Positions 2,992-63,083 of a stretch of 64,000 bases of DNA are shown here, in pieces. The position numbers and the translations under genes were made by a program. The first letter of the stretch is position 1. Each line of letters begins with the position of its first letter. The stretch is taken from NCBI GenBank assembly GCA_036252695.1, contig GCA_036252695.1_4122.1; one strand, 5' to 3'. The notes below the pieces were generated by a model. That model had not been told where the DNA came from and did not search any database. It saw only the letters and a list, made by a program, of their open reading frames with translations. The stretch comes from a phage.

Positions 2992-3093
2992 ACTTGTCAT
3001 AGGTTGCAGTGCACTTGCTGCATATATGCTTTTTTCCGCACCAACCAATGTATTACTGCTAATTTGGGCAGTTGTTATATTAGCAGTACTTTA

Positions 3094-3117
3094 AAAGCAC
3101 CCTTGTGGTGCTTTTTC
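3094..3117 (+). terminator. rho-independent terminator
   Basis: AGCACC / GGTGCT hairpin followed by TTTTT. Confidence 0.5.
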
Positions 3118-3254
3118 TATTTGTGCAAATAAAAAGCAATGTGACTTTTCCTTGATATAGGTCAAGAGAAATAACCTGTTCTGACGCTATAATGTTGTCT
3201 GGTGATATTAAATATCTTCACCCCCAGATGATTTCAAAATACAAGGAATGTACA

Positions 3255-5060
3255 ATGCAATTAGATAAATTATATACCGATGTAACAAATTTCCTAAATC
3301 AGAGTAATACTGATCTTACTAATGAAAACGCTAATAAAGATGCAAAATGCGTCAATACACATAGAGATTTACTAGCAGGTATTCTATCTAAGCATTATTC
3401 ACAAGATGTTATTCCCACCGAGTTAATGCAATGGCATAATGATGGATATGGTCATATTCATGATTTAGATTACTATATTAGCCCATTGACCAATTGTTGC
3501 TTGGTTAACTATCCTGATATGCTTAAAAACGGCTTCACTATTGGTTGTGCTAAAATTGAAGAACCAAAAAGTTTCAGTGTAGCTTGCACAGTACTGACAC
3601 AAATTGTCCAAGCTGTTGCCAGTTCCCAGTACGGTGGACAATCGTTGGCTCATATTGACGTTGGTCTTGAACCTTACGTCCAAAAGTCATGGGATAAGCT
3701 GTTAGAAAAACAAAAGAAATATAATCTAAGTGATGAGTTCATTGAAGAAGAATTACGAAAAGAAGTATACGATGGATGTCAAACATTACTTTACCAGACT
3801 AATTCAATGATTAGCACTAATGGACAAGCTGCATTCATTTCTCTTAGTTTAGGGCTTAATACTTCTAAATTTGGTAAATTAATCACTGAACAGTACTTAA
3901 AAGTTCATGAGAATGGTTTAGGTAAAGATAAGATTACTCCAGTGTTTCCTAAAGTAATTTTCTTTTTACAAGATGGTATAAACATGAATACCAATGATAG
4001 TAATTATGACCTTAAACAGTTAGCTATGCGTTGTGCATCAAAACGAATCTACCCAGACTTTGTTTCAGTTCCATTAAATCACAAAGTGACTGGAAGTAGT
4101 AGTACTGCTGTAACACCGATGGGCTGTCGTTCATTCTTAGGAAAATGGGAAGATTCAAATGGAAATGAACAATACAACGGTCGTTTCAATTTAGGCGTAG
4201 TTTCTATCAATTTACCTCTAATTGCTCTTGAGAGTGCTTCTGATGGAGAGTTTTTTGATAAGATAGACGAGCACATGAATATTGCATATCGTGCTCAGAT
4301 GAACCGTGTGGAGCGTTTAAAAGGCACTAAAGCGAAGCAGAATCCAATTTTGTTCATGGAAGGTGCATTAGCACGTTTAGGTGCAGAAGAAACCATTGAC
4401 AAGCTATTTTACAATGGTTATGCTAGTATTAGTATTGGTTATGTTGGTCTTGTTGAATGTTCAGAAATCCTCACTGGTTCTATCAGTAAGGAGTTTTGTA
4501 TGTCAGTACTGAATTATATGAAAGTAAAATGTGATGAGTTCAAAAAAGAAAGTAATATTGCTTTTAGTCTATATGGAACTCCAGCAGAGTCGCTTTGTTA
4601 TAAATTTGCACGTTGCATTGAAGCAAAATATCCTTCAGTACTAAAACGTGATTACATCACAAATTCCTTCCATCAACCAGTATGGGTAGAAAGTTCTCCA
4701 TTTGATAAATGGAGTTATGAAGAAGGGTTTGCTTACCTAAGTAACGGTGGAAACATCAGTTATGTTGAATCTCCAAACTTAGCAAACAACATTCAAGCAC
4801 TTGAAACATTAGTTAACTATGCGTACACTAAGATACCATATTTTGGTATTAACCAACCAGTTGACCATTGTTATGAATGTGGCTTCCAGGGTGAGTTCAG
4901 TGTAGATAAACATGGTTTCCACTGTCCGGTATGTGATAATCGTAATGAGAAGACAATCTCAGTGATTCGTCGTGTTTCTGGTTACTTGGGTAATCCTTCT
5001 TCGCGTGGATTCAATAAAGGCAAACAACAAGAGTGTTGTGAGCGTATTCAGCACAAATAA
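3255..5060 (+). CDS. nrdD: anaerobic ribonucleoside-triphosphate reductase (class III RNR)
   Basis: Collinear similarity to T4 NrdD (NENANKD near N-terminus, PMGCRSF, C-terminal glycine-radical motif RRVSGYLG, CxxC zinc ribbon). ORF track starts at 3192; ATG at 3255 has an AAGGAA RBS and matches the T4 N-terminus. Confidence 0.9.
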   Translation: MQLDKLYTDVTNFLNQSNTDLTNENANKDAKCVNTHRDLLAGILSKHYSQDVIPTELMQWHNDGYGHIHDLDYYISPLTNCCLVNYPDMLKNGFTIGCAKIEEPKSFSVACTVLTQIVQAVASSQYGGQSLAHIDVGLEPYVQKSWDKLLEKQKKYNLSDEFIEEELRKEVYDGCQTLLYQTNSMISTNGQAAFISLSLGLNTSKFGKLITEQYLKVHENGLGKDKITPVFPKVIFFLQDGINMNTNDSNYDLKQLAMRCASKRIYPDFVSVPLNHKVTGSSSTAVTPMGCRSFLGKWEDSNGNEQYNGRFNLGVVSINLPLIALESASDGEFFDKIDEHMNIAYRAQMNRVERLKGTKAKQNPILFMEGALARLGAEETIDKLFYNGYASISIGYVGLVECSEILTGSISKEFCMSVLNYMKVKCDEFKKESNIAFSLYGTPAESLCYKFARCIEAKYPSVLKRDYITNSFHQPVWVESSPFDKWSYEEGFAYLSNGGNISYVESPNLANNIQALETLVNYAYTKIPYFGINQPVDHCYECGFQGEFSVDKHGFHCPVCDNRNEKTISVIRRVSGYLGNPSSRGFNKGKQQECCERIQHK

Positions 5061-5068
5061 GGTAAATT

Positions 5069-5401
5069 ATGGATTTAAAGCCAATTGTGGTTAACAAATA
5101 CAAAGAACCGTATGATGTGTATATTGGACGTGGGTCTAAATGGGGAAACCCATTTACCCATATTAAAGATAAACAAACTAAAGCCGAATTCATTGTTAGT
5201 ACAAGAGAAGAATCAATTGAAAAATTCAGAGAATACATTATTGAACGTATTTCTTGTGGAGAAGTTAAGATTGATGAATTACTTGAACTCGCAGGGAAAC
5301 GCCTTGGTTGTTTCTGTAAACCAAAATCATGTCACGGCGATGTTCTTGTCGAAATAGTGAGTGCAATATTAGATGAATTACCAGACGATAATGAAGGATG
5401 A
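5069..5401 (+). CDS. DUF4326-family protein
   Basis: Motifs YIGRGSKWGNPF and CFCKPKSCHGDVL characteristic of DUF4326; sits between nrdD and nrdG. Confidence 0.6.
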   Translation: MDLKPIVVNKYKEPYDVYIGRGSKWGNPFTHIKDKQTKAEFIVSTREESIEKFREYIIERISCGEVKIDELLELAGKRLGCFCKPKSCHGDVLVEIVSAILDELPDDNEG

Positions 5402-5843
5402 TTTAGTAAATGGAGAGGGCGTTCGCTGCTCTTTATTTGTTAGTGGGTGTTCGCACGGATGTGATGGTTGCTTCAATGAAGAAGCATGGGACTACCGAAG
5501 TGGACAAGAGTTCAGTACTGAAACAGTTGAGATTATACTACAGGAACTAAAAAAACCATATGTTAGTGGTTTGTCACTTCTAGGCGGCGATCCATTAATG
5601 AAAAAGAATATAGATGAAGTTTTAAATCTATGCAAAGTAGTTAAAGAAACTTATCCTAGTAAAACTATTTGGTGCTGGAGTGGGTATACTTTAGATGAGA
5701 TTATGAAAAATCATGCTAAAGATATACTTCAGTACTTAGATGTATTAGTTGATGGTAAGTTTATCGAGTCCGAAAAGAATTTAAAATTACCTTTCCGTGG
5801 TTCAAATAATCAAAGAATACTATATAAAAATAAAGATTTTTAA
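5373..5843 (+). CDS. nrdG: anaerobic RNR activating protein (radical SAM)
   Basis: CxxxCxxC cluster (GCSHGCDGC) and end-to-end similarity to T4 NrdG (FVNGxG, GGDPL, RGSNNQR). Confidence 0.85.
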   Translation: MNYQTIMKDDLVNGEGVRCSLFVSGCSHGCDGCFNEEAWDYRSGQEFSTETVEIILQELKKPYVSGLSLLGGDPLMKKNIDEVLNLCKVVKETYPSKTIWCWSGYTLDEIMKNHAKDILQYLDVLVDGKFIESEKNLKLPFRGSNNQRILYKNKDF

Positions 5844-5847
5844 CATA

Positions 5848-5869
5848 AGCACCCATTGGGTGCTTTTTT
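5848..5869 (+). terminator. rho-independent terminator
   Basis: AGCACCC / GGGTGCT hairpin plus T6. Confidence 0.55.
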
Positions 5870-5877
5870 GTTATGTA

Positions 5878-5885
5878 TATAAATA
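5878..5885 (+). promoter_or_regulatory. T4-type late promoter core TATAAATA
   Basis: Exact TATAAATA about 35 nt upstream of the tail-fibre start codon. Confidence 0.4.
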
Positions 5886-5919
5886 CATTAACTAATATCT
5901 AATTTATAAGGGATATATA

Positions 5920-8616
5920 ATGTCAAAGAAAATATATGGTGGCTTGGATGTCACACATAATGTGACAGTTAATGGTAAAAGAACAATACAAGGTATCAAT
6001 GATCAAGTATTTGATGCTAATGGCAATATGGAGCTAGATACTTATTCAAGAGATGAAGTACTAGATATCGTCAGTATGATGCCAATTTCCCATTATGGGT
6101 CACAAAACTATCTTCCTGCTGGTGTATCTGGTGATTTCAATGGTGCATCTGAAAACCAGTCCCAACGTAGAAATAAAATTTTATTAGAAAACGATGGTAC
6201 ACTCGTATTATTACGTAGTGGTACAAACGGTAGTGTTGAGGGATTATATTATTCATATTTGGCTAACGCATTATCAGTTGATGACATGAGCCGTACAATT
6301 AACACCAGTCGTCAATACAAGCCTGGTTTTTTCGGTTCAAATCGCGTCGCAATTGGCTTATACAATACTGATCCAAATATTTTACTCGGTAGATATGTAG
6401 ACACTTCTAACAGTACTAATGGATTGTTTATTTCTATTACTAATGGTACATTAGATGATAAATTACATACTGGTTTTTTTGTAAATCAAGCAGATATTTG
6501 CCCTGAAGGTGGTATAGAATTTGCAATGATGGCTGAAGATGGTTCAATCTATGTCTTTAGTGTTCTTAATGAAAATAACCAACTACAGTTAGTTGTTGTC
6601 CGAGTTGTATATAATATTAGCAATGGAACATATACGGCAACTCGTATTACAGGATGGACTACAAAAACATTCTATAATACAACTTATTCTGCACAGAATA
6701 ACATGGTTATTACTAATCAAGTAACTTCAACTAATATAGCAGATAAGCCTTATGTGTATGTACCACAAAACCTACGTGGTATTGGGATTTATATGACATC
6801 CATTGATTTGTATGTTGCACAGCAACCAGGAACACAGAACTTTCGTTTTAGAATGAATGGTGATGCATGGTTTACAATGGCGACATATAATGCCCGACCA
6901 CAACATAGCTACAGCTTTGCATTTAATATGAGTACTAAACAATGCACCCTAGACGCTGGGAATGACATAGGTTCATATCAAGCACCATTGGTTATAACCA
7001 ATACTGGTTCTGCATTAGTGCCTACAGGTAACGTTTTAAATAATGATCCATTATATAATCATGCTAATGCAAGAAACATTTATAGTTCTTATTTTTACTT
7101 AAGTTCAGGTGAAGCTTTTTGTACTGTGTGTCCAAACTTAGCAGAACCATTACTTATGCAAAAAGCAAAGTTTCCTATACAAATTGTTTATAGTATGATT
7201 AACGTTCGTGCAGTACAATCAACTGATTTTAAAGGTGGAGTTGTTAGACCATCCTTTGGTTCAGCAGTTGGTTCATTTATTAATGGTGTGGAGTTGTTAC
7301 CAGATAATAGTACTAAACAATATTCACGTGCGTCTGGTAGTGGTGGGTTTAGACCATCATATGCAGTTCATAAAAGTACTCCTAATTTTACATTTAAATC
7401 ATTATCTTTAGGAACCATACAAGGTTATGAACCTACAACTGAACGTGGTTATGTAGATGATAATGCCAATAATAGAATTTTCATTAGTAGTATTTCAGGT
7501 TCAACTGTAACAACTAATGGCGGTATTTTTATGGTTGGTCAACGTTATTCACAATCATTTTCATATGATAAAAACTTAAATGGTACTGGTGTTATTAGTG
7601 TTACACAATCAGTTCTAGATAACTTTAGAAATACAGAATATGCTAAAGTTCTAAGTGACTGGAACTTATCTTCACAAGCTTATCGTGATATGACATTATT
7701 TGTTCCACAACAAACTGACATTCCGGCTTTTGTTATGTTGAGTACTATAACAAATGACTATAAAAACTATATTAGAATTGCTGAAGTTAACGTTAATACT
7801 AGAGTTGGAAATATAACATCTATTACCTTTAAGCGTTTAGTACTAGAAAATACATATGGTGAAAACTTTACACCTAATGGTAATGGTTCGATTGCATCTT
7901 CTTCTGTTGGGTTAACAATTTATGATGGTGGTTCATTCTACTTCATTGGTGGTTCTGACCCATTAACACATCCAACAATAGGAAATACAGCAACTCATCA
8001 ATTTAGAGCATATGTAACTAAATCAACTGCACAATTTACAAGTTTTGTTATTACTGGTTCTCATGCCAGTTATGAACAAGGAAGACAACCCACTGCGTTG
8101 CCTGGTATTGGATTTGGTATTTTTGATCCACTGGATTATACAAATAAAATGTCATTTCAAAAATATGGAACAACGATAGCCGACTATAATAACTGGACTC
8201 CACAAGGTAGCCCAATTAACGTAGTATCACAAGACGTTGCTCAAGGGTTTATTGTTTATTTTACAGAGGAAACACCAGTTATACTATCAGGTAAGTCTTT
8301 TACACTACCAGTTTCAAATATTGATTTGAGAACTATAAAATCTAATCCAGCAAATACAACATTTTATGTATATGTTAAATTAGAACAAGGGTTGGCAAAC
8401 TACTACATAACTACTGATGTTATTTCCGAAACAGGAACAACTGCATATAATATTTTTTGGATAGGTACTATTCAAACTAACGCAATTCAAATCGAAACTA
8501 TTAATATACAAAAACGTTCACGTTTAGATATATTTGGTGCTTCACTTGAATCAGCAGGTTCATCGTTCCCAGTTAGCTACGGTCTACCATCACAAACAGG
8601 AACCATAAACTGGTAA
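5920..8616 (+). CDS. tail fibre protein (paralogue A, 898 aa)
   Basis: Large Ser/Thr/Gly/Asn-rich ORF behind a late promoter; N- and C-terminal modules shared with 9232..11961. Confidence 0.7.
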   Translation: MSKKIYGGLDVTHNVTVNGKRTIQGINDQVFDANGNMELDTYSRDEVLDIVSMMPISHYGSQNYLPAGVSGDFNGASENQSQRRNKILLENDGTLVLLRSGTNGSVEGLYYSYLANALSVDDMSRTINTSRQYKPGFFGSNRVAIGLYNTDPNILLGRYVDTSNSTNGLFISITNGTLDDKLHTGFFVNQADICPEGGIEFAMMAEDGSIYVFSVLNENNQLQLVVVRVVYNISNGTYTATRITGWTTKTFYNTTYSAQNNMVITNQVTSTNIADKPYVYVPQNLRGIGIYMTSIDLYVAQQPGTQNFRFRMNGDAWFTMATYNARPQHSYSFAFNMSTKQCTLDAGNDIGSYQAPLVITNTGSALVPTGNVLNNDPLYNHANARNIYSSYFYLSSGEAFCTVCPNLAEPLLMQKAKFPIQIVYSMINVRAVQSTDFKGGVVRPSFGSAVGSFINGVELLPDNSTKQYSRASGSGGFRPSYAVHKSTPNFTFKSLSLGTIQGYEPTTERGYVDDNANNRIFISSISGSTVTTNGGIFMVGQRYSQSFSYDKNLNGTGVISVTQSVLDNFRNTEYAKVLSDWNLSSQAYRDMTLFVPQQTDIPAFVMLSTITNDYKNYIRIAEVNVNTRVGNITSITFKRLVLENTYGENFTPNGNGSIASSSVGLTIYDGGSFYFIGGSDPLTHPTIGNTATHQFRAYVTKSTAQFTSFVITGSHASYEQGRQPTALPGIGFGIFDPLDYTNKMSFQKYGTTIADYNNWTPQGSPINVVSQDVAQGFIVYFTEETPVILSGKSFTLPVSNIDLRTIKSNPANTTFYVYVKLEQGLANYYITTDVISETGTTAYNIFWIGTIQTNAIQIETINIQKRSRLDIFGASLESAGSSFPVSYGLPSQTGTINW

Positions 8617-8627
8617 AGGATTACATA

Positions 8628-9215
8628 ATGGCATTTAAAATAAGAGCAGACCTTAAGGCAATGCAACAAGTTACAGTACAGGGTAAAAGTACTGGACTTG
8701 GTGTATTAGGTAATAATATGACTTATTACCCAACAAATTCAAATGGGGAATGTACATTCCCCTCTATTACCAAAGATGAAGTTAACTTTATTGTCAATGG
8801 ATTACCACTTACACAATACGGAGAATTGTATGATGACGCTAGTCTAAATATTACTTCATCAGGCTATAGTCTTACATTTAATAGACAGATACCATCATTT
8901 ATTGGTGGTTATCTTTATAAATTTCCAGCAGTTTCTATTTTTGCTTCAACTGTTTCATCTGGAACACAAACACAATATGTATATGCAACGTTAGTTCTCG
9001 GTGAACCAATTTATAAAATATCACCAACACAAATACAAGAATCTGAAATTATAATGTTTATTGGAACACTGACCGTTGGTACAAGTGGTATTACAAATAT
9101 AAACATTAATAAAGTATCCAGATTTAGTACATATAGACCTAGTGTTACACAAAAAGGTTCTTCATTCCCAGTCAGTACTGGAAAACCATCAGAAACTGGT
9201 ACAATTGGTTGGTAA
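8628..9215 (+). CDS. short tail-fibre-related protein sharing the fibre C-terminal module
   Basis: 195 aa; C-terminus ...GSSFPVSTGKPSETGTIGW matches the C-termini of both large fibres. Confidence 0.5.
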   Translation: MAFKIRADLKAMQQVTVQGKSTGLGVLGNNMTYYPTNSNGECTFPSITKDEVNFIVNGLPLTQYGELYDDASLNITSSGYSLTFNRQIPSFIGGYLYKFPAVSIFASTVSSGTQTQYVYATLVLGEPIYKISPTQIQESEIIMFIGTLTVGTSGITNININKVSRFSTYRPSVTQKGSSFPVSTGKPSETGTIGW

Positions 9216-9231
9216 ATTAAGGAAAAGAAAG

Positions 9232-11961
9232 ATGTCATCAAAACGAATTATAGGAAGTGCCGAGATCCTTGGGAACTTGGCAATTGGACAAAGGTACGCT
9301 ATGCGTACTTTTAATGGAACCTCACCGAATGCCAATACTGGAATTGTTCAATATCCAATATATAAGCGTTCAGAAGTTCAAAGTATTTTAGATATGTTGC
9401 CTATATCACGTGTAGGAGAAATGGATTACTTGCCATTAAACGTAAGTGGGTCGTATGAAGGTGCTACACCTATGTCAAGTGACCAAGTAGTTCAGCCAAC
9501 AATTATTGAAGATGATGGAACCGCCGTTGTTCTGCGTAGCGGAACCAATGGTAGTACTAAAGGTTTTTATTATTCATTTATACGAGAAATCAGAAATATA
9601 ACCATGATTTCACAAGAAAGTGTTATTTCAACCAATTCAATGTATAAACCTTCAATTATGAGTAGTACAGAGAATATTAAGTATTTTATTGGCTCTAATG
9701 GTTATGAAATGCTTGGATGTTTAAGTACAGAAGATAATTATATTTTTACTATAACTAATGGTACATTCAACGAAGTATCACATATTCATGCTAAAGTACC
9801 AAGTACTTCTTTTGGTAATGATATGCCTATATATACTCATATTGTTGGAACAAAAGTATATATTTGGTGTAAAGATAAAAGTGTTTCTAATTTAGGATTA
9901 GCACTTTCAATTTATACAGTAGAGCTAAGTGATGTGAAAGCAAGCTCAATGGCATCATTAACAAAAGTTACTGGATTATCAGGGCAAACTGTTCGAAATA
10001 CAAGTTATTCTGCATCTAATAACATAAGAGTGTTTGATAGATTATATAGTGTTGGTACTAGCTCGGATTCATTATTCGAAGTTACATCACCAGTCTCACG
10101 TGTAGAATTTTCGGATTATACAGACTTTAATATACAAGCAAACGTTAGTACTGATTTATCCAAAATACGTGTAACTTTATACCCAACCCATAGAATGGTT
10201 ACACCTTTATATATTTCAACAGTGTATGGTACTGGTATCAGTTTTGTTTATAATATAAACTCAAAATCTATGTCACTAGATGGTTCTGCTCGTGCTCCTG
10301 CTACAGTTTCATATGATAATGGATTTCAAGTTTCTAACCCATTTGAAATCAATATGGTCAACTTTACTGGGACAACTGCTGCTGGTGTATTAGGAAACGC
10401 AGGTGGTTTATGTCAAACCAAAGATGGTTTAGTATTTGCATCTAAATTTAGATGGAGTTCAACTGAATTTTATGGTCTACAACGATATAAGGTTAGTGGT
10501 ACACCGTTTGATTCATGGGTTGCTAGTACTAGATCCGCAAGTAACGTTATAAATGCAAACGTTTTACCAGTTTTTGGTAGTGCTGTTGGTGCAAACCTAT
10601 TAGGTGTACGTTTCATCGATAATAGAAAAATATTATTAGCATGTTCTGGTACGTATGATGATGTAACATATAATTATAATAATACTGTTTTTTCTGAAAT
10701 AGGCTCACAACCAACATATCAATATAACTCAGTTCAAAATAATACTACATTAAATGGTTTTGCACCACAATCTAATCGTAAACAAATAGGTGATGATTTT
10801 ACATACACTGCTATGATTTCTCTTGTTGATACCGATGGTAGTGTTAGATGTTATGGAACATCATTCATTGAAGGTGTATATAAAACAAGTGGTGGATTAT
10901 TAAACCCAGATACTTTAGAATTTGATGAAACATATACAATAGAACCAACGGTATTAGAATCATTAAAACAAGATATTTTTGCTAATCTAGGAAACTCTGG
11001 CATTGTTGGTACACTATCTGGACAAATTGTATTATATTATGTACCTGATAATACTTTTTCTAAATCCATTGCAGTAGTTTCAGCATATAATCTTAACAAT
11101 AACCAAGGTTATGCAATCTATGCCGAAGTTGATGTTGTATTATCTGGATCTAACATAACTTCAGCTACATTGGTAAGTACTAGATATGAGACACTTAGTT
11201 CTGTTACAGGAATTATTACTGAAGCATATATGAAACGTTGTACTGGTCTAACAGTTGCTAAATATTCAGGATTTGGTTATATTGGTGTTGATGCAGTTCA
11301 TCAATTTTCACAACCAGGTAATGCACAATTTAAGATGATGATAGCTAAAACAGTAAATGGTGTCATAACATCAAATCGTTTTTTATCATCTAGTTACATC
11401 CAACTCGGTGCAGCATATCAACATGGTGTTATTCCTGGTGTTGGTTTTGGATATTACAATTTTCAAGATTCTGACTATCAAACCAAATCTGTATTCAGCG
11501 TTTTTGGTACAACATCTGCTGAAATGGATGGTTTAATTAGCGGAAATGGTAGCGTTAAAGAAAAGATTGTGGTAGTATCACAAGACGTTGCACAAGGATT
11601 CTCAGTGTACTTTACACGTGAAGTTCCGGTATTTTTAGGTGGAATTTTCGACAGACTACCTATACAAAGTGTAGATTTAAGTACTGTAAAAAATAATCCA
11701 GCTAATACTACGTTCTATTTGTATATACAAATGAACAGGAATACTAAGAAAGCTTCATATGTTATTAGTACTGAAACTATTGATGAATCTTTAACTAGCA
11801 CTTACATTGGTAAGATAGTTACTGGAACTTCAGGAATTACTTCGATTGATACTGAAAAAGTGACTCGTTTTTTGACATATCGCCCAAGTACAACGAAACG
11901 TGGTTCAGCGATACCTGCCAGTACTGGTGTACCGTCTGGGTCAGGCACACGTTGGAAATAA
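9232..11961 (+). CDS. tail fibre protein (paralogue B)
   Basis: ORF track 9142..11961; ATG at 9232 with AAGGAAAAG RBS avoids overlap. N-terminus (LPISxxG..YLP, LRSGTNGS) and C-terminus paralogous to 5920..8616. Confidence 0.7.
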   Translation: MSSKRIIGSAEILGNLAIGQRYAMRTFNGTSPNANTGIVQYPIYKRSEVQSILDMLPISRVGEMDYLPLNVSGSYEGATPMSSDQVVQPTIIEDDGTAVVLRSGTNGSTKGFYYSFIREIRNITMISQESVISTNSMYKPSIMSSTENIKYFIGSNGYEMLGCLSTEDNYIFTITNGTFNEVSHIHAKVPSTSFGNDMPIYTHIVGTKVYIWCKDKSVSNLGLALSIYTVELSDVKASSMASLTKVTGLSGQTVRNTSYSASNNIRVFDRLYSVGTSSDSLFEVTSPVSRVEFSDYTDFNIQANVSTDLSKIRVTLYPTHRMVTPLYISTVYGTGISFVYNINSKSMSLDGSARAPATVSYDNGFQVSNPFEINMVNFTGTTAAGVLGNAGGLCQTKDGLVFASKFRWSSTEFYGLQRYKVSGTPFDSWVASTRSASNVINANVLPVFGSAVGANLLGVRFIDNRKILLACSGTYDDVTYNYNNTVFSEIGSQPTYQYNSVQNNTTLNGFAPQSNRKQIGDDFTYTAMISLVDTDGSVRCYGTSFIEGVYKTSGGLLNPDTLEFDETYTIEPTVLESLKQDIFANLGNSGIVGTLSGQIVLYYVPDNTFSKSIAVVSAYNLNNNQGYAIYAEVDVVLSGSNITSATLVSTRYETLSSVTGIITEAYMKRCTGLTVAKYSGFGYIGVDAVHQFSQPGNAQFKMMIAKTVNGVITSNRFLSSSYIQLGAAYQHGVIPGVGFGYYNFQDSDYQTKSVFSVFGTTSAEMDGLISGNGSVKEKIVVVSQDVAQGFSVYFTREVPVFLGGIFDRLPIQSVDLSTVKNNPANTTFYLYIQMNRNTKKASYVISTETIDESLTSTYIGKIVTGTSGITSIDTEKVTRFLTYRPSTTKRGSAIPASTGVPSGSGTRWK

Positions 11962-11967
11962 TTTTAA

Positions 11968-11996
11968 AGCTCGTCTATTGACGGGCTTTTCTTTTA
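11968..11996 (+). terminator. rho-independent terminator
   Basis: AAGCTCGTC / ACGGGCTT hairpin followed by a T-run. Confidence 0.45.
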
Positions 11997-12028
11997 TGTG
12001 TATAATTGAATAAAAATAGGAGGAAATT

Positions 12029-12595
12029 ATGGTTAAATCTTTGCTACCACCACCAAAACGTCATAAAATCAAAGAAATGAAAGAACAACGTACATTAAAG
12101 ATGTACAACAATTTAGTTCAGTTACTGTGTAAAAGTCCATCGCTCAAAGCAGAGTTTAAAACTGATGATGACCGCAAAGCACTAATTGAGATGAAGTATA
12201 TGCTCAGTAAAATGTCCTTTTACAAATTTGTAAAAGAATACACAACTGACCCATTTAGTCCTCGTTGGAGATCCAAACCAAGAGAGTATTTTTACGGTGG
12301 TTCATATACGGATCGCATTCAAGACACAGTGATGGGAGTTGAATTTGAAATCGATTATGAGCCGAATGGTGTGGAAAGCTGGCCGATTGAGAAACGTTTA
12401 CCAAGTGAAGAAGAAATTTATGTTTATGCAAGAAAACTTTCAAATTTCAGTTCAAGAATTACTCTAGGCAATTTAGATTCATTTATTATTTTCTATACAC
12501 GTGTTGGTGTAGATAAAATGGTAACTAAACTCAATGAACTTTCATTACAACAAAAACAGATTAATGCATACAAAGACATTACTGATTTATACTAA
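12029..12595 (+). CDS. hypothetical protein, tandem paralogue family member 1
   Basis: GGAGG RBS; shares motif (D/N)D(D/N)R(K/R).(L/I)(I/L)..KY.LSK with the next two genes. Confidence 0.5.
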   Translation: MVKSLLPPPKRHKIKEMKEQRTLKMYNNLVQLLCKSPSLKAEFKTDDDRKALIEMKYMLSKMSFYKFVKEYTTDPFSPRWRSKPREYFYGGSYTDRIQDTVMGVEFEIDYEPNGVESWPIEKRLPSEEEIYVYARKLSNFSSRITLGNLDSFIIFYTRVGVDKMVTKLNELSLQQKQINAYKDITDLY

Positions 12596-54301: not shown

Positions 54302-54365
54302 ATAACTACCTCACTTGTTATGATGGTGTCACCCAAAATGAGTGACACCTTTATTATTATAATTA

Positions 54366-57300
54366 TTAAGCAGTACGTTGTGCAATAAACATATCTGTTA
54401 CTGGACTCACACCGTCATAAATGACTTGGTAGATAGTTACAGAGTTTGCAGTTTTGTTCAGTGTGCCATCAACAACCGCATAAGTACCATCAGTAGTAAA
54501 GTTTCTATTACCTGTTGCATCTTGTTTCACATAAATGTATACTGAAGATGCTTTACCACCACCGATTAGACCAGTGATTGGTGCTAGAGTGGTATCTTGA
54601 TCTAGAGTGATAAAGTATACGTTGCTAGTACCGTCTGGGGTCCAAGTACCAGTTGGTGCGATAACAGAAGAAGTTACTTGATTAGGAATAACATCATATT
54701 TTTTAGTAGTTACTGTTGTAGTAGTTAGGTCAGCATTAGTAGTTGTTAATTGACCAGTTACAGTTACATCTTTATCAAATACTGCATTTTCTTTGAAAGA
54801 AGATGTTGCATTGACAGTTAATGTATCAGCAGCAGCGTCACCTAAAACAACACTACCATTTGCAGTCATTAAACCAGTAACAGTTAAAGTACCACCGATT
54901 GTTGCTGCTCCAGTAACAGATGCACTAGCAAGTGTTGCTGCACCAGAAGTAGTAATGGTAGTTACTGAAGTTGCTGCTAGGGTTGCAGTACCTGTTGCAG
55001 AAATATCACCACCAACAGTTAGGTTACCAGAAGTAATTCCAACGGTTCCAGTAATGTTAGCACCACTTGACATTGTTACTGCACCACCAAATGAACCAGT
55101 AGTAGTTACTTCAAGGGTGTTCCCTTTTAGTAGACCAGTTGCAGTAATACTTGTACCTGCGGTAATACTAGTACCAGCAGCAACACTGTTGGTTGCAGTT
55201 AATGATTTAACAGCCACGTCAGAGTTTGCTTGGTTTAGTGTTGCGTTAAGTAGACCAGTTACTGTAAAGTTACCGTTGTTAACTACGTTACCATTGATTG
55301 TTAAGTTGTTGTTTTGTGAACCAACATCACCAATAGTTGCTGATTTGGAAATCAACTCTGCACCAGAAGTAATATTACCCGCTGCACTAATAGTGTCCGC
55401 CGCAACAACTGCATAAGGTTCAATTGTTTGACCACTAACGTCAATATCAGCGTTGATACCACCATCTACACGCAAGGAGCCAGCAATGTAAGTATTAGGG
55501 AAAATCTGAACTGTCTCTGGTTGATCGCCAATTTTAGTACCGATAATAACATCAGCACCAGTTTTAACTGCACCAGAGGTTGTTAGAGAACCTAAAGTTG
55601 TAGCACCAGTTACACCTAATGTACCACCAATTGTTGCGTTATTAGTAACTGCTAACGCAGCACCTTCACCATTAAGAGCGATTGATGGAGCAGATACTGC
55701 ACCAGTTACGCCTAATGTGCCACCAATTGTTGCGTTGCCATCTGAATGTAGAGTTGTAGCTACAGAAAGACTGTTAGCAACTACATCAGTACTAGCTAAA
55801 TCCAATGCACCTGGGGTTAATGTACCAGTAATGTTAACATTATTACCAAAGGTCGCTGCACCAGTCACATCTAGTGTAGTACTAAATGTACCAGATGTTG
55901 CAGAGATTGCACCTGAATCTAGTGATCCAACAGTTGCTTTACCAGTTACACCTAAAGTTCCACCAACAGTTCCATTTGTGGTTACATCCAATGTACCAGT
56001 ACTTAGTTCTTGTGCGGTTACCTTACCGGATGCAGTAACAGTTGAAGTGGAAACACCACCAGTTAGAGTACTAGCACCAGTAACACTTAATGTGGTTGCC
56101 GCAGTTACGCTATTCACACTAAGATCAGCACCGGATAAGTCCAAACCACCTTCAGGAACAAATACACCCTTAACAGTTAGTTTTTGTACTGTACTATCAC
56201 CTGTTACATCCAATGTAGAAGCAGTTAAACCACCATTCATACTTGCTGCACCAGTAACACCTAGTGTAGTGGTTACAGTAGCACTATTAAGTGTTGAGCT
56301 ACCAGAAATATTAGCACTAGAAGCAGTAATAGTTCCAGAATCAACTTGTATACCACCAGCAACAACCTGAATTCCACCAGCATTAACTGTTAGTTTACCA
56401 GCAGTATTCAATGTATTTGAAACTGTTGTTGCACCAGTTAAAGTTGTAGTGCCAGTTACACCTAAGTTACCAGAAATAGATGGACTACCTGTAATGTTAC
56501 CAGTAGTTAGTATCAAATCAGTACCTACGGTAGTGGAGCCAGTACTTTCTAGTGTTACACCGACGATGTTTGCAGAACTTAGGTTAATAGTACCATCAAC
56601 AGTTAAGTTACCTTGAACGGTTGCATCACCTAGAGAAGTTAATGTCTTCACAGACACATCAGTTGTGCTAAGATCAATAACACCCGCAGTTAGTGTTCCA
56701 GATACTGCTAAATTACCAGTAATCGCGGTATTTTTAGTAATGGATACATTTTCTGCCGCTGAAGTAATAGAACCAACAGTAAGTACACCACCAACAGTTG
56801 CGTTATTAGTTACATTTAGAGCAGTTCCAACACCAGATAGTGTTGCTGACCCACCAGTAATTGCACCTGAGATTGAAGCTGTTGCTGCTGAAACATCACC
56901 AGAAACTACTGCATTTGTTGCATTTAGAGCAGACACAGTAACTTCAGTACTTTGAACTTTAGGTAGAACGTTGATACCTTCTGCACTACTAACTGTAATA
57001 ATACCAGTACTTGTTAGAGATTTAACAGATACATCAGCACCACTTAAATCAACTGTACCAGAAACAACAAGATCTCCACCAATATTTGCTCCAGCGGTAG
57101 TAGTAATGGATTTTGCACTTACATCAGTTGTGCTCAAATCAATTGCACCTGGTGTTACTGTACCAGAAACTGTTAGGTCACCAGTAATAGATGTATTATT
57201 GGAAATAGATACACCATCAACGTTACTAATTGTTGGGGTTTCTACAGAAACTGCTTTAACTTTACCTGAAGAAGTTACGTCAGCTACGGTAGATGCACCA

Positions 57301-59891
57301 GTAACATTCAAATTAGTAATATTTGCAGTTGTTGAACCAAGGGTTGCAATAGTTGCATCAGTACTTTGAAGTTTAGGTAGAACACTACTAATTGTGGATT
57401 CATTACTAACAATTGCACCAGTACTAGTTAAAGATTTGACAGTAACATCAGCCGTAGTAAGATCTACTGTACCATTAACAGTTAGGTTACCACCAATAGT
57501 TGCACCAGCAGTAGTAGTAATGGATTTAGCATTAACATCAGTTGTTGCTAGATCGATAGAGCCTGGAATAACTGCACCAGTAACAGTTAGGTCACCAGTT
57601 ACATTTGTATTATTGGAAATAGTGACACCACTTGCATTTGAAATGGTTGGGGTAACCAACGATGCAGTTGTAGTTTCACCAGTTACAGTTAAAGTTGACC
57701 CAACTAGAACAGATGAGCTTGAGTAAATTGTACCCAAATTAGCAGATCCGGTAACAGTTATATCATCAGCATTAACAGTAGTTGCCGTTATGGTAGTACT
57801 ATTAAGTACTGGAAGTACGTTAGCATTAACAAGATCATTACTTTTAACAATACCAGAAGTAGTTAATGATTTAACATTAAGGTCGGCTGCTGATAAATCA
57901 AAAGAGCCTTGAACTACTAAATCACCACCAATAGTTGCACCAGCAGTAGTAGTGATTGATTTAGCATTAATATCGGTAGTGCTCAAGTCTAGAGAACCAA
58001 CAGTTAAGCTACCAGTAATATCAACATTTTCTGTAAAGTTAGTATTACCACTAATAGTTGGTGCAGTCAGAGTTGTTGCACTAATATTAGTACCGTTAAT
58101 TGTTTGCCCACTTACAGTTCCACTCGCAGTGATAGTAGGGGCCGTTACTTCAGTAGATGCACTAATTGTTGGTGCAGATACAGAAGTTGTACCAGTAATA
58201 GAACCAGAACTTACTGAACCAGCGGATAATGCACCAGAAAGAGTTGCAGTTGTACCAGCAATATCACCAGTAACAGTTAGTTTAGCACCCACGGTAGTGT
58301 TACCAGTACTTTCAAGTGTTGCACCTTTAATATTTGCTGCCGCGACAACAGAATTAGGTGTTAGATCCTGCCCACTAACATCAACAGTTAGTCCAGTTAC
58401 TGTTCCAGTAAATTCAACATCATTAAGAATTGCTTTACCACCAACTTGTAGGAATGGTGTACCTGGAGCTTGTGTTTCGTTACCAGTAATAGTTAGGTAA
58501 TCTAGTTTGTTTAGACCGTTACCAGTAATACCATAAGTGGAAAGAGAAGCGTTACCGAAAGTTGCTGTTTTAAGAACGTTCAATGTAGAAGGAGAAACGA
58601 CTTCTGATTGAACTTCGTTAGGTAGAATAACTGTTGGGCGTTGACCTGGTGCAGTATATCCAAAACCTAGTTTCACTGCCGCATCTTGACTATTTTGACC
58701 TAAGCTGATAGCTTTAAAGGATGCAGTACTGTTATAACCAGTAATATTAGAACCAAGAGTAACACCACCAACTAATGAAGTTACACCAGTAACGTTCAAA
58801 GATACTGCATTAATATCGTCTAGTTGGAACGTTCCACCAAGAAGACCAGAAACATTAATGTTATTAAAATTAGCAGTACCAGTACTTTCGATATTTGGAA
58901 TAGTTGCAGTTCCGGTTACTTCAAAGTCAGCAACTTTAGTTTTTCCTTTTTGAACTTCTAATAGTGGTGTGTCTGGTGATTGTGTATTGTTACCAGAAAC
59001 TGTTAGATAATCTAATTTGTTTAGACCATTACCAGTAATACCATAAGAAGATAATGACGCATTACCAAAAGAAGCAGAGGTCAATACTGTCAAGTTTGCA
59101 GGTGACATTAGCTCGGACTGAATTTCGTTTTGTAGAATAACAGTTGGGCGTTTACCAGGAGCAGTGTAAGGGAAGCTTAATCTGAAGGTTTGTGATTCAG
59201 AGTTAGAACCAATACGAATGTCTTTAAAAGTAGCAGTACTGTTAATACCAGTTACGTTAGCACCGAAAGTTACTGCACCTTGTTGGTTAGATGCACCAGT
59301 AACGTTCAATGTTACTGCATTTAAGTCAGATAGATTAAACTCACCACCAAGTGTACCACTAATTGTCACATCGTTAAATGTAGCAGTACCAGTACTACTA
59401 ATATCTGTTGTACTTACATTAGTAATTTCTGCGGTATTAGCAGTAATTTTATCAAATGCAGCAGTAGTCCCAACATCAGCAGTAATATTACCTTTAAATG
59501 CTGTTGTTTCAGCAACTTCTAAGTTTTTAACTTTAGTTGCTTGTAGAGTGGTTGTACCAGCAGTTTGTGTAAAATCAGAACCAACTGATACAGTACCGTT
59601 AAAGGTAGCGTTTGAATTAATTGTTGCTGTATCAGACCCGACAACTGCACTACCGATTGTAGTATTACCCTCAACACCAAGACCACCAGAAAGTGTTGCT
59701 TTGCCACCTACATCTAAAGTAGATGTAATGTTGGCAGTTGATGATTCAATGGCAGTAAAAGTTGCATTTGCAAAAGTTACAGTACCATTTACAGTTAGGT
59801 TATTGTTGAAAACAGCATTTCCTTTGACTAAAAGATCCTTACCAACCGTACCAGCACCAGTAATATCTAAGTCAGTTTTTATTGAGTACAT
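54366..59891 (-). CDS. giant tail fibre / adhesin-like protein (1841 aa) with internal tandem repeats
   Basis: GGAGGG RBS; extremely Thr/Gly/Ser/Ala/Val-rich; contains a ~170-aa duplicated segment and three or more ~135-aa repeat units. Confidence 0.7.
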   Translation of the reverse strand: MYSIKTDLDITGAGTVGKDLLVKGNAVFNNNLTVNGTVTFANATFTAIESSTANITSTLDVGGKATLSGGLGVEGNTTIGSAVVGSDTATINSNATFNGTVSVGSDFTQTAGTTTLQATKVKNLEVAETTAFKGNITADVGTTAAFDKITANTAEITNVSTTDISSTGTATFNDVTISGTLGGEFNLSDLNAVTLNVTGASNQQGAVTFGANVTGINSTATFKDIRIGSNSESQTFRLSFPYTAPGKRPTVILQNEIQSELMSPANLTVLTSASFGNASLSSYGITGNGLNKLDYLTVSGNNTQSPDTPLLEVQKGKTKVADFEVTGTATIPNIESTGTANFNNINVSGLLGGTFQLDDINAVSLNVTGVTSLVGGVTLGSNITGYNSTASFKAISLGQNSQDAAVKLGFGYTAPGQRPTVILPNEVQSEVVSPSTLNVLKTATFGNASLSTYGITGNGLNKLDYLTITGNETQAPGTPFLQVGGKAILNDVEFTGTVTGLTVDVSGQDLTPNSVVAAANIKGATLESTGNTTVGAKLTVTGDIAGTTATLSGALSAGSVSSGSITGTTSVSAPTISASTEVTAPTITASGTVSGQTINGTNISATTLTAPTISGNTNFTENVDITGSLTVGSLDLSTTDINAKSITTTAGATIGGDLVVQGSFDLSAADLNVKSLTTSGIVKSNDLVNANVLPVLNSTTITATTVNADDITVTGSANLGTIYSSSSVLVGSTLTVTGETTTASLVTPTISNASGVTISNNTNVTGDLTVTGAVIPGSIDLATTDVNAKSITTTAGATIGGNLTVNGTVDLTTADVTVKSLTSTGAIVSNESTISSVLPKLQSTDATIATLGSTTANITNLNVTGASTVADVTSSGKVKAVSVETPTISNVDGVSISNNTSITGDLTVSGTVTPGAIDLSTTDVSAKSITTTAGANIGGDLVVSGTVDLSGADVSVKSLTSTGIITVSSAEGINVLPKVQSTEVTVSALNATNAVVSGDVSAATASISGAITGGSATLSGVGTALNVTNNATVGGVLTVGSITSAAENVSITKNTAITGNLAVSGTLTAGVIDLSTTDVSVKTLTSLGDATVQGNLTVDGTINLSSANIVGVTLESTGSTTVGTDLILTTGNITGSPSISGNLGVTGTTTLTGATTVSNTLNTAGKLTVNAGGIQVVAGGIQVDSGTITASSANISGSSTLNSATVTTTLGVTGAASMNGGLTASTLDVTGDSTVQKLTVKGVFVPEGGLDLSGADLSVNSVTAATTLSVTGASTLTGGVSTSTVTASGKVTAQELSTGTLDVTTNGTVGGTLGVTGKATVGSLDSGAISATSGTFSTTLDVTGAATFGNNVNITGTLTPGALDLASTDVVANSLSVATTLHSDGNATIGGTLGVTGAVSAPSIALNGEGAALAVTNNATIGGTLGVTGATTLGSLTTSGAVKTGADVIIGTKIGDQPETVQIFPNTYIAGSLRVDGGINADIDVSGQTIEPYAVVAADTISAAGNITSGAELISKSATIGDVGSQNNNLTINGNVVNNGNFTVTGLLNATLNQANSDVAVKSLTATNSVAAGTSITAGTSITATGLLKGNTLEVTTTGSFGGAVTMSSGANITGTVGITSGNLTVGGDISATGTATLAATSVTTITTSGAATLASASVTGAATIGGTLTVTGLMTANGSVVLGDAAADTLTVNATSSFKENAVFDKDVTVTGQLTTTNADLTTTTVTTKKYDVIPNQVTSSVIAPTGTWTPDGTSNVYFITLDQDTTLAPITGLIGGGKASSVYIYVKQDATGNRNFTTDGTYAVVDGTLNKTANSVTIYQVIYDGVSPVTDMFIAQRTA
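56640..58030 (-). repeat. in-frame tandem coding repeats (~415-430 bp unit, about 3.3 copies) inside giant fibre gene
   Basis: Repeated DNA blocks seen near 56650, 57001, 57418 and 57851, encoding (I/L)DLSTTDV.AKSITTTAGA.IGG.L.V.GT.DL. Confidence 0.5.
58440..59460 (-). repeat. in-frame tandem duplication (~510 bp x 2) inside giant fibre gene
   Basis: 58451-58570 aligns with 58961-59080 at the DNA level; encodes duplicated TGTA(T/N)FN...GITGNGLNKLDYLT segment. Confidence 0.5.
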
Positions 59892-59994
59892 TTATACCCT
59901 CCATTATAACCTTGTTAATATGTATATATTTAGTTTTATTATGCTGTTATCCAACAATTAATATGTTATTTGACAAAAGCAAATATAATAAAAA

Positions 59995-60020
59995 CCAGAC
60001 TTATTTAGAACAAGTCTGGT
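59995..60020 (-). terminator. rho-independent terminator (minus strand)
   Basis: CCAGACTT / AAGTCTGG hairpin flanked by A-run and T-run. Confidence 0.45.
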
Positions 60021-60028
60021 TAATTTTT

Positions 60029-60925
60029 TTACTTACCAGAGATGACAATCTTACCACTGAAAGAAATATCAGAAGTGAAGATTACATCACCAGTACTACT
60101 AATTTGTGTATCAGTCACTACCAATTCAAATGGAGATGACGAAACACTCCCAGGTGTTTTATTTGCATAAATTGAAATATACAAATTATCTGGTGTTTGA
60201 TTGTGTTCAGATGCAGGAATAGTGATTGTAAAATCACCATCACTAGAAACCCAATCTGCTTGGTTTACCAATTTACTATAAGGTACTGTCATTGTTGTTG
60301 CTCCTATAATGTTTACTTTAACACTTGCATAATCTGTGATTTGACCAATCACATCAATTGTTATATCCCCAATACCACTAACTGTTACTGTGGTTTGGAA
60401 TACTGATTCCAATGCAACATTACCTGGGTCACCTTGTAGTTGGATCATAATATCAGAACCTCTACCATGAACTGATTCTGGTAGTGTGTAAGTATAATGA
60501 TCAGTAGTATCTGGCACTAATGTAAATGCAGAAACAGGAACTATTTCAGTAGTTACATATGAGCTATCAGTCCCAGGTGAGCTACCTTTAAATGGTTTCC
60601 AAATACCAAGATCTTTAATATAAATTTGAAGAACATTAGTACTATCAACCAAAAAGTAAACGTCACCATCTAGACCGATCGAATCGGATGGTGCTGTTGT
60701 TCCACGTAAGATACCAGAACTACCACCACCACTGTGTGCGTTTAAATATCCCAATGTAACCAAGTGTGTGTTTGCAGTTGGTTCACCTGCTGAAATTGGA
60801 AGAAGTTGTGTTCCTGAGTAGTTTTGAATTTGCACAACACTACCATTTGTGGTAATCTGTGCACCATTCTTCCCAAGAATGAAGGACTTCTTCATGGTTC
60901 CTTCTAAATTAGAAAAAACTGCCAT
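60029..60925 (-). CDS. tail fibre/spike protein with conserved N-terminal anchor module (298 aa)
   Basis: AAAGGAG RBS; N-terminus MAVFSNLEGTMKKSFILGKNGAQI paralogous to N-terminus of 60942..63083. Confidence 0.55.
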   Translation of the reverse strand: MAVFSNLEGTMKKSFILGKNGAQITTNGSVVQIQNYSGTQLLPISAGEPTANTHLVTLGYLNAHSGGGSSGILRGTTAPSDSIGLDGDVYFLVDSTNVLQIYIKDLGIWKPFKGSSPGTDSSYVTTEIVPVSAFTLVPDTTDHYTYTLPESVHGRGSDIMIQLQGDPGNVALESVFQTTVTVSGIGDITIDVIGQITDYASVKVNIIGATTMTVPYSKLVNQADWVSSDGDFTITIPASEHNQTPDNLYISIYANKTPGSVSSSPFELVVTDTQISSTGDVIFTSDISFSGKIVISGK

Positions 60926-60941: not shown

Positions 60942-63083
60942 TTATGGTAGGGTTATGTAAGTTACGGGTTGGGCAGCTTTTAATGCTGCACCAGCGGCAG
61001 TTGCTGTTATGATAGGATCTGCAATATCAATTCTATATACGTTGTTTACAACATACACTGCACGAGTTATATACGTTCTCAAATCACCACCATTTTCACC
61101 AGCACCGGATATAATGATCTCAGTACCAGCAGCTTTTGCATATTGGTTTTCACCCCATGACACACCCAATGCTTCTATGTATGTTTGTCCTGCTACCGTT
61201 TGTCTAATTGTGTCATATTTTCCGAAAAAAGAACCACCAACAGTTACAATATATTTTCCACCCGATTGTTTATGAATAATCGTGCCTTCAGAGAAATAGC
61301 GTCCCCCAGGAAAAGTATCGTATGGAATATAATATTGCTCAACTACAGGTATCAGTACTGGGCCACGGTGTCCTGTACCATCGATTGCAGTTGTAACTTT
61401 AAAGTTATTAGATGATTGGTCTATTCTGTCTACATACATTTTAGAAAAACTATATTTTGAAACATTACAATCATCTTGAACAACACAGTTAGTCCAATTA
61501 GTATAAGTATATTTAGAGCGAGTATAGATACCACCACCTTCGCCTTCGGTAGAGAGGTGTTGACCAATTACATCTAATTCTTTAGTTCTAATATCACTAA
61601 ATTTAGATGATGATGGCAAACCACGCCAAAGGATTTTAGAACAGGTGATATTGCTCAATTCTGTATTATTTAACCAATTATCAGAACCGGAAGTATAAAC
61701 AAGTATAGAAGACTCTGGAATATAGAGATTAGAAATTTTAAAGTTTCTAGGTGGTCCAGCAAAACGACCAGAAGTTACACCCCAGTTTATTGAAACCATT
61801 CTATTTGTGATAGAAGGATCATTAAGCAAATGACCAGTCAACCCATCAATAATGAATTCTTTCGAACCATAAGTTATAACACCAGCAGTGGTTAATCCAG
61901 TACCAACAGAAACTAAAGATGATGGATAAACTTCATTATTAAGTATTTTAAAGTCCATTCCTAATTCAACGTGGATACATTGTCTAACATTATATAGTCT
62001 GTTATTTTTAATAACAAAGTTTCTGACATATTGTGTATCTGGTGCATCTAAACCATAAGGACCAGAACCAGCAACGCCAATACCAATGCCCCAGTTTGAA
62101 AGTGGGATTGGAGCGTTAGAACCATCAACGTTTTCAATTACGTTTCCTTCAATCACAAAACCATCAGGATAATGTGAGTTAATTACGTTTAGTTCAATTG
62201 CATCACCATATATATCATGTATGTGGTTATATGAATATCTACCAACCTTCATTTTCTCACCAGTACCTTGTTGAAGAACACCATACTTACATTGGGTCAT
62301 TTCATTAAAGCAAAAATCTATTGTTCCTGGTTGTGTCATACCTTGCATTAAAAATGCAGCAGTACTTGTGATGTTTATAAATTTATTAAAATAAAACTTA
62401 CCATCGCCACCGAAGAATTTTAAATAACATCCAGTAAGTGTTGCAAATTGTATTTGGGAATTAATAACGGATACCATAGTACCACCATTACCAGTAATAG
62501 TTCCCCCAAACCAAGTTACATCTTCCAGGTATATTGCAGTTTTGATACGGTAATTACCACCAGCCTGAATTTGGATTTTATTTTCTTTAGCATAAGCAGC
62601 ACATAAATTTACAGCAGCAGTGTCATCAGTTTCGCCATCACCTTTAGCACCAAATTCTTCTGGTGTTATATAAAACTGGGCCTGTTGAACTGTACCTCCA
62701 GTAATAAGTCCGATGAAATCGCCACCATTTTTACTGGATATAACTTTTTTATTAATGTATAATGATTTTACCCATGTGCCATTACTTTTTGCAAAAATAT
62801 CAACAATACCATCTTCATCAATTTGAAAATACGTATTATTGTTCTTTCCTACATCATCGGTAGGGGGTACAACACCAAATAATGCATTAGGGTTATCTTC
62901 AAGATATTTTACGTTAACTGCTGAATTAGGGTCAGATGAAGTTCCTACCTTCAGTGGTAGGAACTGTTCTCCTAGATAATCTTTTATAGAAACTGAATCA
63001 TTGATAAAATTTATTGAAGCACCTTTTTTCCCCAATATGAATTTGGGCTGCATAGTTCCTTCAAAATTAGAAAATACTGCCAT
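60942..63083 (-). CDS. tailspike protein with predicted right-handed beta-helix (possible polysaccharide depolymerase)
   Basis: AGGGAGGA RBS; shared N-terminal anchor MAVFSNFEGTMQPKFILGKKGASI; central region with repetitive Asn/Gly/Val beta-helix-like rungs. Confidence 0.6.
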   Translation of the reverse strand: MAVFSNFEGTMQPKFILGKKGASINFINDSVSIKDYLGEQFLPLKVGTSSDPNSAVNVKYLEDNPNALFGVVPPTDDVGKNNNTYFQIDEDGIVDIFAKSNGTWVKSLYINKKVISSKNGGDFIGLITGGTVQQAQFYITPEEFGAKGDGETDDTAAVNLCAAYAKENKIQIQAGGNYRIKTAIYLEDVTWFGGTITGNGGTMVSVINSQIQFATLTGCYLKFFGGDGKFYFNKFINITSTAAFLMQGMTQPGTIDFCFNEMTQCKYGVLQQGTGEKMKVGRYSYNHIHDIYGDAIELNVINSHYPDGFVIEGNVIENVDGSNAPIPLSNWGIGIGVAGSGPYGLDAPDTQYVRNFVIKNNRLYNVRQCIHVELGMDFKILNNEVYPSSLVSVGTGLTTAGVITYGSKEFIIDGLTGHLLNDPSITNRMVSINWGVTSGRFAGPPRNFKISNLYIPESSILVYTSGSDNWLNNTELSNITCSKILWRGLPSSSKFSDIRTKELDVIGQHLSTEGEGGGIYTRSKYTYTNWTNCVVQDDCNVSKYSFSKMYVDRIDQSSNNFKVTTAIDGTGHRGPVLIPVVEQYYIPYDTFPGGRYFSEGTIIHKQSGGKYIVTVGGSFFGKYDTIRQTVAGQTYIEALGVSWGENQYAKAAGTEIIISGAGENGGDLRTYITRAVYVVNNVYRIDIADPIITATAAGAALKAAQPVTYITLP

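Follow-up and report, generated by a model that had tools for sequence, protein, structure and literature searches.

The tail-fibre gene and its product

We analysed a window of 64,000 nt of phage DNA (NCBI GenBank assembly GCA_036252695.1, contig GCA_036252695.1_4122.1), in which an earlier note, made from the letters alone, had pointed to a long fibre gene with internal tandem repeats. The gene is an ATG-started open reading frame (ORF) on the minus strand at 54366..59891, exactly as that note had placed it, and its 5526 bp encode 1841 aa with a computed mass of 180.38 kDa. The 5526-bp region is 100% identical in Escherichia phages 121Q (gene 571, product gp571), vB_EcoM_G17, SHEFM2K, Sharanji and E9.1, and 98.8–99.9% identical in 7 further records; the phAPEC6 gene is 99.9% identical. 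The matching records are jumbo myoviruses of ∼350 kb of the genus Asteriusvirus. The protein matches PHROG 4549, ‘tail fiber protein’, with E 9e-227. Its mass is also that of phAPEC6 gp256, which the mass-spectrometry table of phAPEC6 virions lists as a tail fiber protein of 180.38 kDa with 15 unique peptides (PMC7247149), and therefore the fibre protein is a virion component. According to the same paper, that phage has six fibres on its baseplate as well as unusual ‘hairy’ ones on its sheath and capsid (PMC7247149). Gene and protein are already known as the 180-kDa tail fibre of the 121Q group of jumbo phages.

The protein is rich in threonine (19%), glycine (12%), serine (11%), valine (10%) and alanine (10%). 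Searches of Pfam and NCBIfam with it returned nothing above threshold; the Bactofilin matches were all sub-threshold (E 0.027, 15 bits versus a cut-off of 27.9), and a bactofilin identity was rejected. There are 25 homologues at E ≤ 1e-10, and PF26209 is present in 23 of them by precomputed annotation, while no paralogue of the fibre was found elsewhere in the window at E < 1e-5. The first 144 residues (59460..59891, minus strand) lie upstream of the first repeated module and are presumed to be the virion-attachment end. This arrangement is shared by the family, in which the first module, here called A, follows directly on an N-terminal region of ∼140–180 aa: it begins at aa 145 in the window fibre, between 141 and 184 in nearly all family representatives, and at residue 168 in PDB chain 9cuy_g of phage phiTE.

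Three arrays of in-frame modules

The self-comparison that had been proposed as a check was carried out at the protein level, as a diagonal scan of the protein against itself in 60-aa windows with five shuffles as control. The highest diagonal scores were 249 (offset 170 aa), 234 (138 aa), 207, 202 (145 aa) and 177 (155 aa), whereas the maxima of the five shuffles were 53–73, and therefore the off-diagonal lines are real. The ∼510-bp tandem duplication reported at 58440-59460 is present over the same span as two 510-nt units (58440-59459, minus strand), which we call A1 (aa 145–314, 58950..59459) and A2 (aa 315–484, 58440..58949; the homologous position holds an extra unit in JP4, CRJP21 and P0002, a metagenomic homologue). 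In a direct-repeat search they appeared as the pair 58443-58658 / 58953-59168, with a spacing of 510 nt and 75% identity over 216 nt. Over the whole unit the DNA identity of A1 and A2 is 65%, and their best 60-aa protein window reaches 77%. Array A is followed by a linker shaft (aa 485–612, 58056..58439, minus strand) whose self-similarity is not above background and which aligns to residues ∼306–445 of the phiTE fibre.

The second array had been described as about 3.3 copies of a ∼415–430-bp unit at 56640-58030; the array is real, but that count is low, because four copies lie at 56310-58055 with spacings of 435, 414 and 465 nt. The direct-repeat search found a four-member family between 56531 and 58018 with spacings of 465, 414 and 435 nt and 60–75% identity, and the protein copies start at aa 613, 758, 896 and 1051. 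All on the minus strand, they are B1 (aa 613–757, 435 nt, 57621..58055), B2 (aa 758–895, 414 nt, 57207..57620), B3 (aa 896–1050, 465 nt, 56742..57206) and B4 (aa 1051–1194, 56310..56741; score 134.5, E 1e-42 in the alignment), the last being similar only over its first ∼70 aa and diverged thereafter. Only these two arrays had been claimed, and we found a third. Array C consists of two ∼113-aa (∼336-nt) units at about aa 1213–1442, with a local alignment score of 197 versus 75 ± 11 for shuffled sequences. From diagonal offsets of 112–113 and the local alignment, C1 was placed at about aa 1226–1338 (∼113 aa, 55878..56216, minus strand) and C2 at about aa 1339–1450 (55542..55877, minus strand), where UB, JP4 and CRJP21 have one more unit, seen as a 112-aa indel in the alignment of orthologues.

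Every unit length is a multiple of 3, and the modules are therefore in frame, as had been noted. Tandem Repeats Finder reported none of the arrays A, B and C, and just four short low-scoring arrays with periods of 12–21 nt, because the copies are too diverged for it; BLASTP of the protein against itself gave the trivial match alone.

Whole-module differences among relatives

Copy number is not fixed across relatives: the counts of A and C differ by whole units. Orthologues are 1841 aa long in the 121Q type, 1834 in ph0011, 1827 in UE-S1, 1959 in UB and 2129 in JP4 and CRJP21, and in a MAFFT alignment these differences come down, besides four indels of 1–7 aa, to exactly one gap of 170 aa and one of 112 aa. 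Hence modular gain explains the gene-length differences between isolates. Array A has three units in JP4 and CRJP21, and array C has three in UB, JP4 and CRJP21. The difference in C falls within one species of the International Committee on Taxonomy of Viruses (ICTV), in which PBECO4 has two C units and UB has three. In array B the number is four in each of the six close relatives examined and departs from this solely in distant family members.

Such one-unit gains and losses could in principle be produced by short-read assemblers, which may collapse or duplicate repeats, and most of the genomes are presumably short-read assemblies. JP4 and CRJP21, however, come from different laboratories and have a common 3-copy A state at 99.6–99.8% identity, which argues against an assembly artefact. 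The 3-copy state is found not only in these independent genomes but also in the metagenomic P0002, P0011 and P0012, and the 2-copy state in more than 14 records. Moreover, with 64 differences in 510 nt, A2 and A3 of JP4 are distinct enough for reads to be placed.

On a wider scale, a profile search with module A found 52 proteins only among 1.84 billion representatives. When these representatives and the 25 homologues were taken together as 72 proteins, 28 had one A module, 25 had two and 3 had three. The one-copy proteins are mostly fibres of 540–1100 aa with the module at residues ∼170–310, as in phiTE. Across Asteriusvirus phages A1 and A2 group by position, and therefore the duplication of A is old and predates the genus.

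Duplication is also seen at the level of the whole gene. BF17 (locus 3501-12399) and fEgEco12 (locus 1-9847) have two adjacent paralogous fibre genes, of 1906 aa and about 1640 aa, where 121Q has one, and both the 1906-aa gene of BF17 and g317 of fEgEco12 have a two-unit A array as well as B units. Here the entire gene seems to have been duplicated in tandem, in addition to its modules.

Hybrid units and probable unequal crossover

The additional units are hybrids. In the middle A unit of JP4 the first ∼460 nt are 82–100% identical to A3, whereas its final 51 nt resemble A1 (88% identity) more than A3 (68%). Similarly, in the middle C unit of JP4 264 nt are 79–100% identical to C3, and the last 72 nt are 91–100% identical to C1 versus 45–75% to C3. 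The polarity is the same in both: the 5′ part resembles the downstream module and the 3′ tail resembles the upstream module, which is the signature of unequal crossover. The metagenomic homologue P0002, which is 49% identical, has a middle A unit of the same polarity with its crossover closer to the 5′-end, and the hybrid A unit of P0011 has its crossover close to the 3′-end. Because these crossover points are unlike that of JP4, they point to independent events, and the sequences give at least three independent expansions of A (in JP4, P0002 and P0011). The crossovers map to the best-conserved stretches of the modules, which contain ‘GNASLS.YGITGNGLNKLDYL’ in A and ‘GGTLGVTG’ in C.

These observations suggest a model of recombination between neighbouring modules, whether inside a single genome or between genomes that share a co-infected cell. 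Where two molecules are paired out of register, unit n+1 against unit n, an exchange in the best-conserved stretch would add one in-frame module, which takes its 5′ part from the downstream unit and its 3′ tail from the upstream one; in the reverse event one module would be lost. In the T-even phages, short conserved motifs of the distal fibre genes gp37/gp38 serve as crossover points that reshuffle segments, and the outcome is that adhesin specificity is exchanged between genomes. The crossovers in the window fibre family alike fall in conserved stretches, but the outcome here is the gain of a whole shaft module.

The single A2 of UB is a chimera of another kind, being JP4-A2-like at the first 17 informative sites and JP4-A3-like at nearly all of the other 47. 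It may be either the contraction of a 3-copy allele or the product of an equal exchange between two diverged alleles with two copies each. It also resembles what would be left if an assembler had collapsed two similar repeats, except that the switch falls in a gap of 11 nt that separates informative sites (positions 230–242), outside the 84-nt exact run at which an assembler working with k-mers would jump. Together with the recurrence of both copy states in separate records, this makes an assembly artefact a very improbable source of the differences.

In the expanded C array of JP4 and UB, C2 and C3 are ∼90% identical. The exact runs in 3-copy alleles reach 84 nt between A2 and A3 of JP4; between C2 and C3 they reach 119 nt in JP4 and, counted within the unit, 35 nt in UB and CRJP21. 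With exact homology of 84 nt in A and 35–119 nt in C, the 3-copy alleles of JP4, CRJP21 and UB should, as a prediction, be much less stable than the 121Q-type allele.

One further observation concerns the C module itself: the 50 nt at 55592-55641, which encode the C-module motif NNATIGGTLGVTG, are 92% identical to part of a Xanthomonas phage XbC2 fibre gene, and the crossover of the C array maps to this same conserved stretch.

Stability of the arrays in the 121Q-type allele

We consider it likely that the modular arrays of this long tail fibre of the virion were formed, and are still being slowly changed, by unequal homologous recombination. Several observations weigh on the other side. In the window allele the longest exact run is 19 nt between A1 and A2 and 15 nt between C1 and C2, and the B pairs have 48–64% DNA identity with exact runs of at most 30 nt, so that exact inter-module homology is just 15–30 nt, a poor substrate for recombination. 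All 12 of the 12 isolates at 98.8–100% identity, from many Escherichia coli host strains, have the gene at 5526 bp in one alignment piece, with no short-term change, and array B is unchanged among close relatives. Moreover, because the chimeric A2 of UB is also explicable by equal recombination, a contraction event is not proven. The AlphaFold2 (AF2) monomer model of module A, finally, has a predicted local distance difference test score (pLDDT) of 63 and no secondary structure, and was unusable for a fold search.

The same data could be taken to mean that the repeats are frozen structural elements, ancient duplications that are kept for the fold, with copy-number differences as rare accidents that have no adaptive role and with nothing varying today. 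Copies at 48–65% DNA identity with exact runs of no more than 30 nt, the same gene length in 12 near-identical isolates, a B array fixed in close relatives, and an A duplication older than the genus, with A1 and A2 grouping by position in Asteriusvirus, all agree with this. However, A has gone from two to three units at least three times independently and C once, the JP4/UB expansion is recent, with C2 and C3 ∼90% identical and sharing a 119-nt exact run, and two C units in PBECO4 stand against three in UB inside one ICTV species. We therefore regard fully frozen repeats as rather unlikely, although to be taken seriously.

At the other extreme, the arrays would form a contingency locus of high frequency, phase-variable in manner, so that each lysate would mix fibre lengths. 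Tandem in-frame units, whose gain or loss preserves the reading frame, are what such a locus would need, and after an expansion adjacent units do have 84–119 nt of exact homology. Known contingency repeats, however, are short and near-identical, whereas the units here are 336–510 nt long, diverged and at most 65% identical, with exact runs of at most 30 nt, and gene length is constant in the 12 isolates. For this allele the explanation was rejected, given copies at 48–65% identity with runs of no more than 30 nt, an array that Tandem Repeats Finder does not find, and 12 isolates that do not vary, and as a general account of the arrays we hold it to be extremely improbable.

Thus the suggestion that the arrays are prone to recombinational expansion and contraction can be kept in part. 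Module number does change, and hybrid units record the changes, but in the window allele the copies are too diverged for frequent recombination. Because the modules are old and diverged in the 121Q-type allele, their copy number is effectively fixed, and the arrays give rise to length variants slowly, on an evolutionary scale, rather than by rapid switching.

Structure and possible function of the fibre

In the proposed layout an N-terminal anchor would be followed by two A modules, the linker, four B modules, two C modules, a distal shaft and a globular C-terminal beta domain of ∼100 aa. The last of these was placed at about aa 1744–1839 (54375..54662, minus strand) from the AF2 model of the C-terminal part, which is all-beta with pLDDT >90 over model residues 65–160, from family conservation and from a match to PDB 9cuy_g (E 2e-24). 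A conserved C-terminal domain of ∼135 aa is present in 24 of the 25 homologues, the truncated P0004 being the one that gave no match, and a fold search with the C-terminal domain model returned no convincing match. As for the shaft, the disorder of module A when modelled as a monomer would fit an obligate intertwined oligomer but tells little else. The fibre is probably a homotrimer.

The only solved relative is the 793-aa ‘putative tail fiber protein’ of phiTE, a Vequintavirus of Pectobacterium (chain g of PDB 9CUY/9MJN; whole-protein E 4e-30). It has one A module at residues 168–314 (E 5e-23) and the same C-terminal domain, but it is without strong B or C arrays and has less than half the length of the window fibre. 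No match to the window fibre was reported for its N-terminal ∼170 residues, and baseplate attachment may differ between the two. In the phiTE map the N-terminal residues alone were modelled, so that the parts common with the window fibre lack an experimental structure. The long fibre of phiTE is a trimer with a predicted extended beta-helix of 512 Å (PMC11972413), although the identity of chain g with the long tail fibre (LTF) of that paper could not be confirmed from its text. On the phiTE scale each module would add a fixed length of shaft, roughly 7–11 nm (∼11 nm per A and 7 nm per C). The number of modules would then alter the length of the fibre in the virion and, by extension, may affect adsorption.

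A further step would be to take module number as a setting relevant to host range, through reach or through the number of lateral binding sites, with lysates of the 3-copy alleles of JP4, CRJP21 and UB mixing several lengths; we think this quite unlikely. If true, the setting could matter for passage through the capsule or for binding to flagella. SHEFM2K, whose fibre gene is 100% identical to that of the window, is said possibly to use flagellar structures as receptor (PMC11895373). The sole solved relative of the fibre comes from phiTE, which is flagellotropic, and the coincidence with the proposal for SHEFM2K may be seen as suggestive. Jumbo phages of the 121Q/PBECO4 group are under characterisation for therapy, although little is understood of their receptor-binding apparatus; a fibre made of discrete in-frame modules, to which more can be added, offers natural design points for the engineering of its length.

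Comparison with other repeated virion proteins

GenBank labels 121Q gp571 as ‘long tail fiber proximal subunit’, a name that recalls gp34 of T4. Both proteins are long and internally repeated, and the window fibre is probably intertwined as gp34 is; T4 gp34 has repeated alpha-beta units and triple beta-helix segments that alternate with globular domains (PMC5537660). However, the repeats of gp34 are ∼33–47 aa long (PMC5537660) compared with 112–170 aa here, no gp34 chain was among the PDB matches at E ≤ 1 in a phmmer search with the protein and three profile searches, and no gp35-, gp36- or gp37-like gene (hinge, distal half-fibre) is adjacent to the fibre gene. A proximal subunit of the gp34 type was rejected, since there is neither a gp34 sequence match nor a gp35–37-like neighbour, and these points together with the larger repeats leave the label unsupported as a family assignment. 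The ‘T4 gp34-like’ label is thus misleading and should be corrected.

In crAss-like phages, BACON domains are likewise repeated in tandem and in frame within a protein of the virion or of host interaction, although the domains are unrelated, and these arrays have been treated as hotspots of evolution (PMC6949934). Fibres with tandem modules shaped by recombination are a known kind, and the present case is a modest addition with no new mechanism. No earlier description of these arrays was found in the literature: the reports on phAPEC6, JP4, Sharanji and fEgEco12 are silent on them, so that both the module map and the evidence from hybrid units appear to be new.

Antisense reading frames

Seven plus-strand ORFs of 96–247 aa overlap the fibre gene. 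That they are spurious, as the earlier note had it, agrees with our results, but its view that they are created by the repeats does not. All seven lie in one antisense frame and cover the non-repeat parts too. Shuffling the codons of the gene, which destroys the repeats and keeps the codon content, gave 31.9 stops in that frame versus 30 in the real gene, and a longest antisense open stretch of 221 ± 55 codons versus 281 in the real one. Because stop counts and open stretches remain similar after the shuffle, the antisense ORFs result from codon composition and not from the repeats. The most open antisense frame has 5.4 stops per kb in the fibre gene, compared with 10–17 in five other genes of the window.

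In PBECO4 the fibre gene (KC295538.1, 1-4993; also NC_027364.1) is truncated where the linear record stops, and in its place the annotation gives three hypothetical proteins from the other strand, AGC35229, AGC35230 and AGC35231. Their reading frames are such composition-driven antisense ORFs, and these annotations in the PBECO4 records are wrong and call for correction.

Neighbouring genes

The fibre gene lies in a co-oriented block with other host-interaction genes. Their products are two structural proteins, one of 259 aa with DUF4376 and one of 298 aa, and a 713-aa spike that degrades colanic acid and has a pectate-lyase-like region; the neighbours of the fibre gene also include one for a 654-aa protein of unknown function. 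The 298-aa protein (gp572, 60029-60925, minus strand) and the spike (gp573, 60942-63083, minus strand) have a common N-terminal motif, MAVFSN(L/F)EGTM..FILGK.GA, which may be a docking peptide common to one attachment site.

A terminator-like hairpin with a 13-bp stem followed by a T run lies between gp572 and the fibre gene (59993..60021, minus strand) and was recognised by its match to the consensus. Just downstream of the fibre gene, at 54302-54365, is a second, GC-rich hairpin, GGTGTCAC...GTGACACC, with a T run on the plus strand. Flanked in this way by hairpins, the fibre gene may be a transcription unit of its own.

The neighbourhood varies among relatives. UB (locus 235-1602) and CRJP21 (locus 1-1276) have an additional 1368-bp gene between the homologues of gp570 and gp569, which is absent from the window and is annotated as ‘hypothetical’ or ‘structural protein’. 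In CRJP21 the homologue of the colanic-acid-degrading spike (locus 9617-10828) is labelled ‘putative MutT/NUDIX hydrolase family protein’, which is probably a shifted or wrong annotation.

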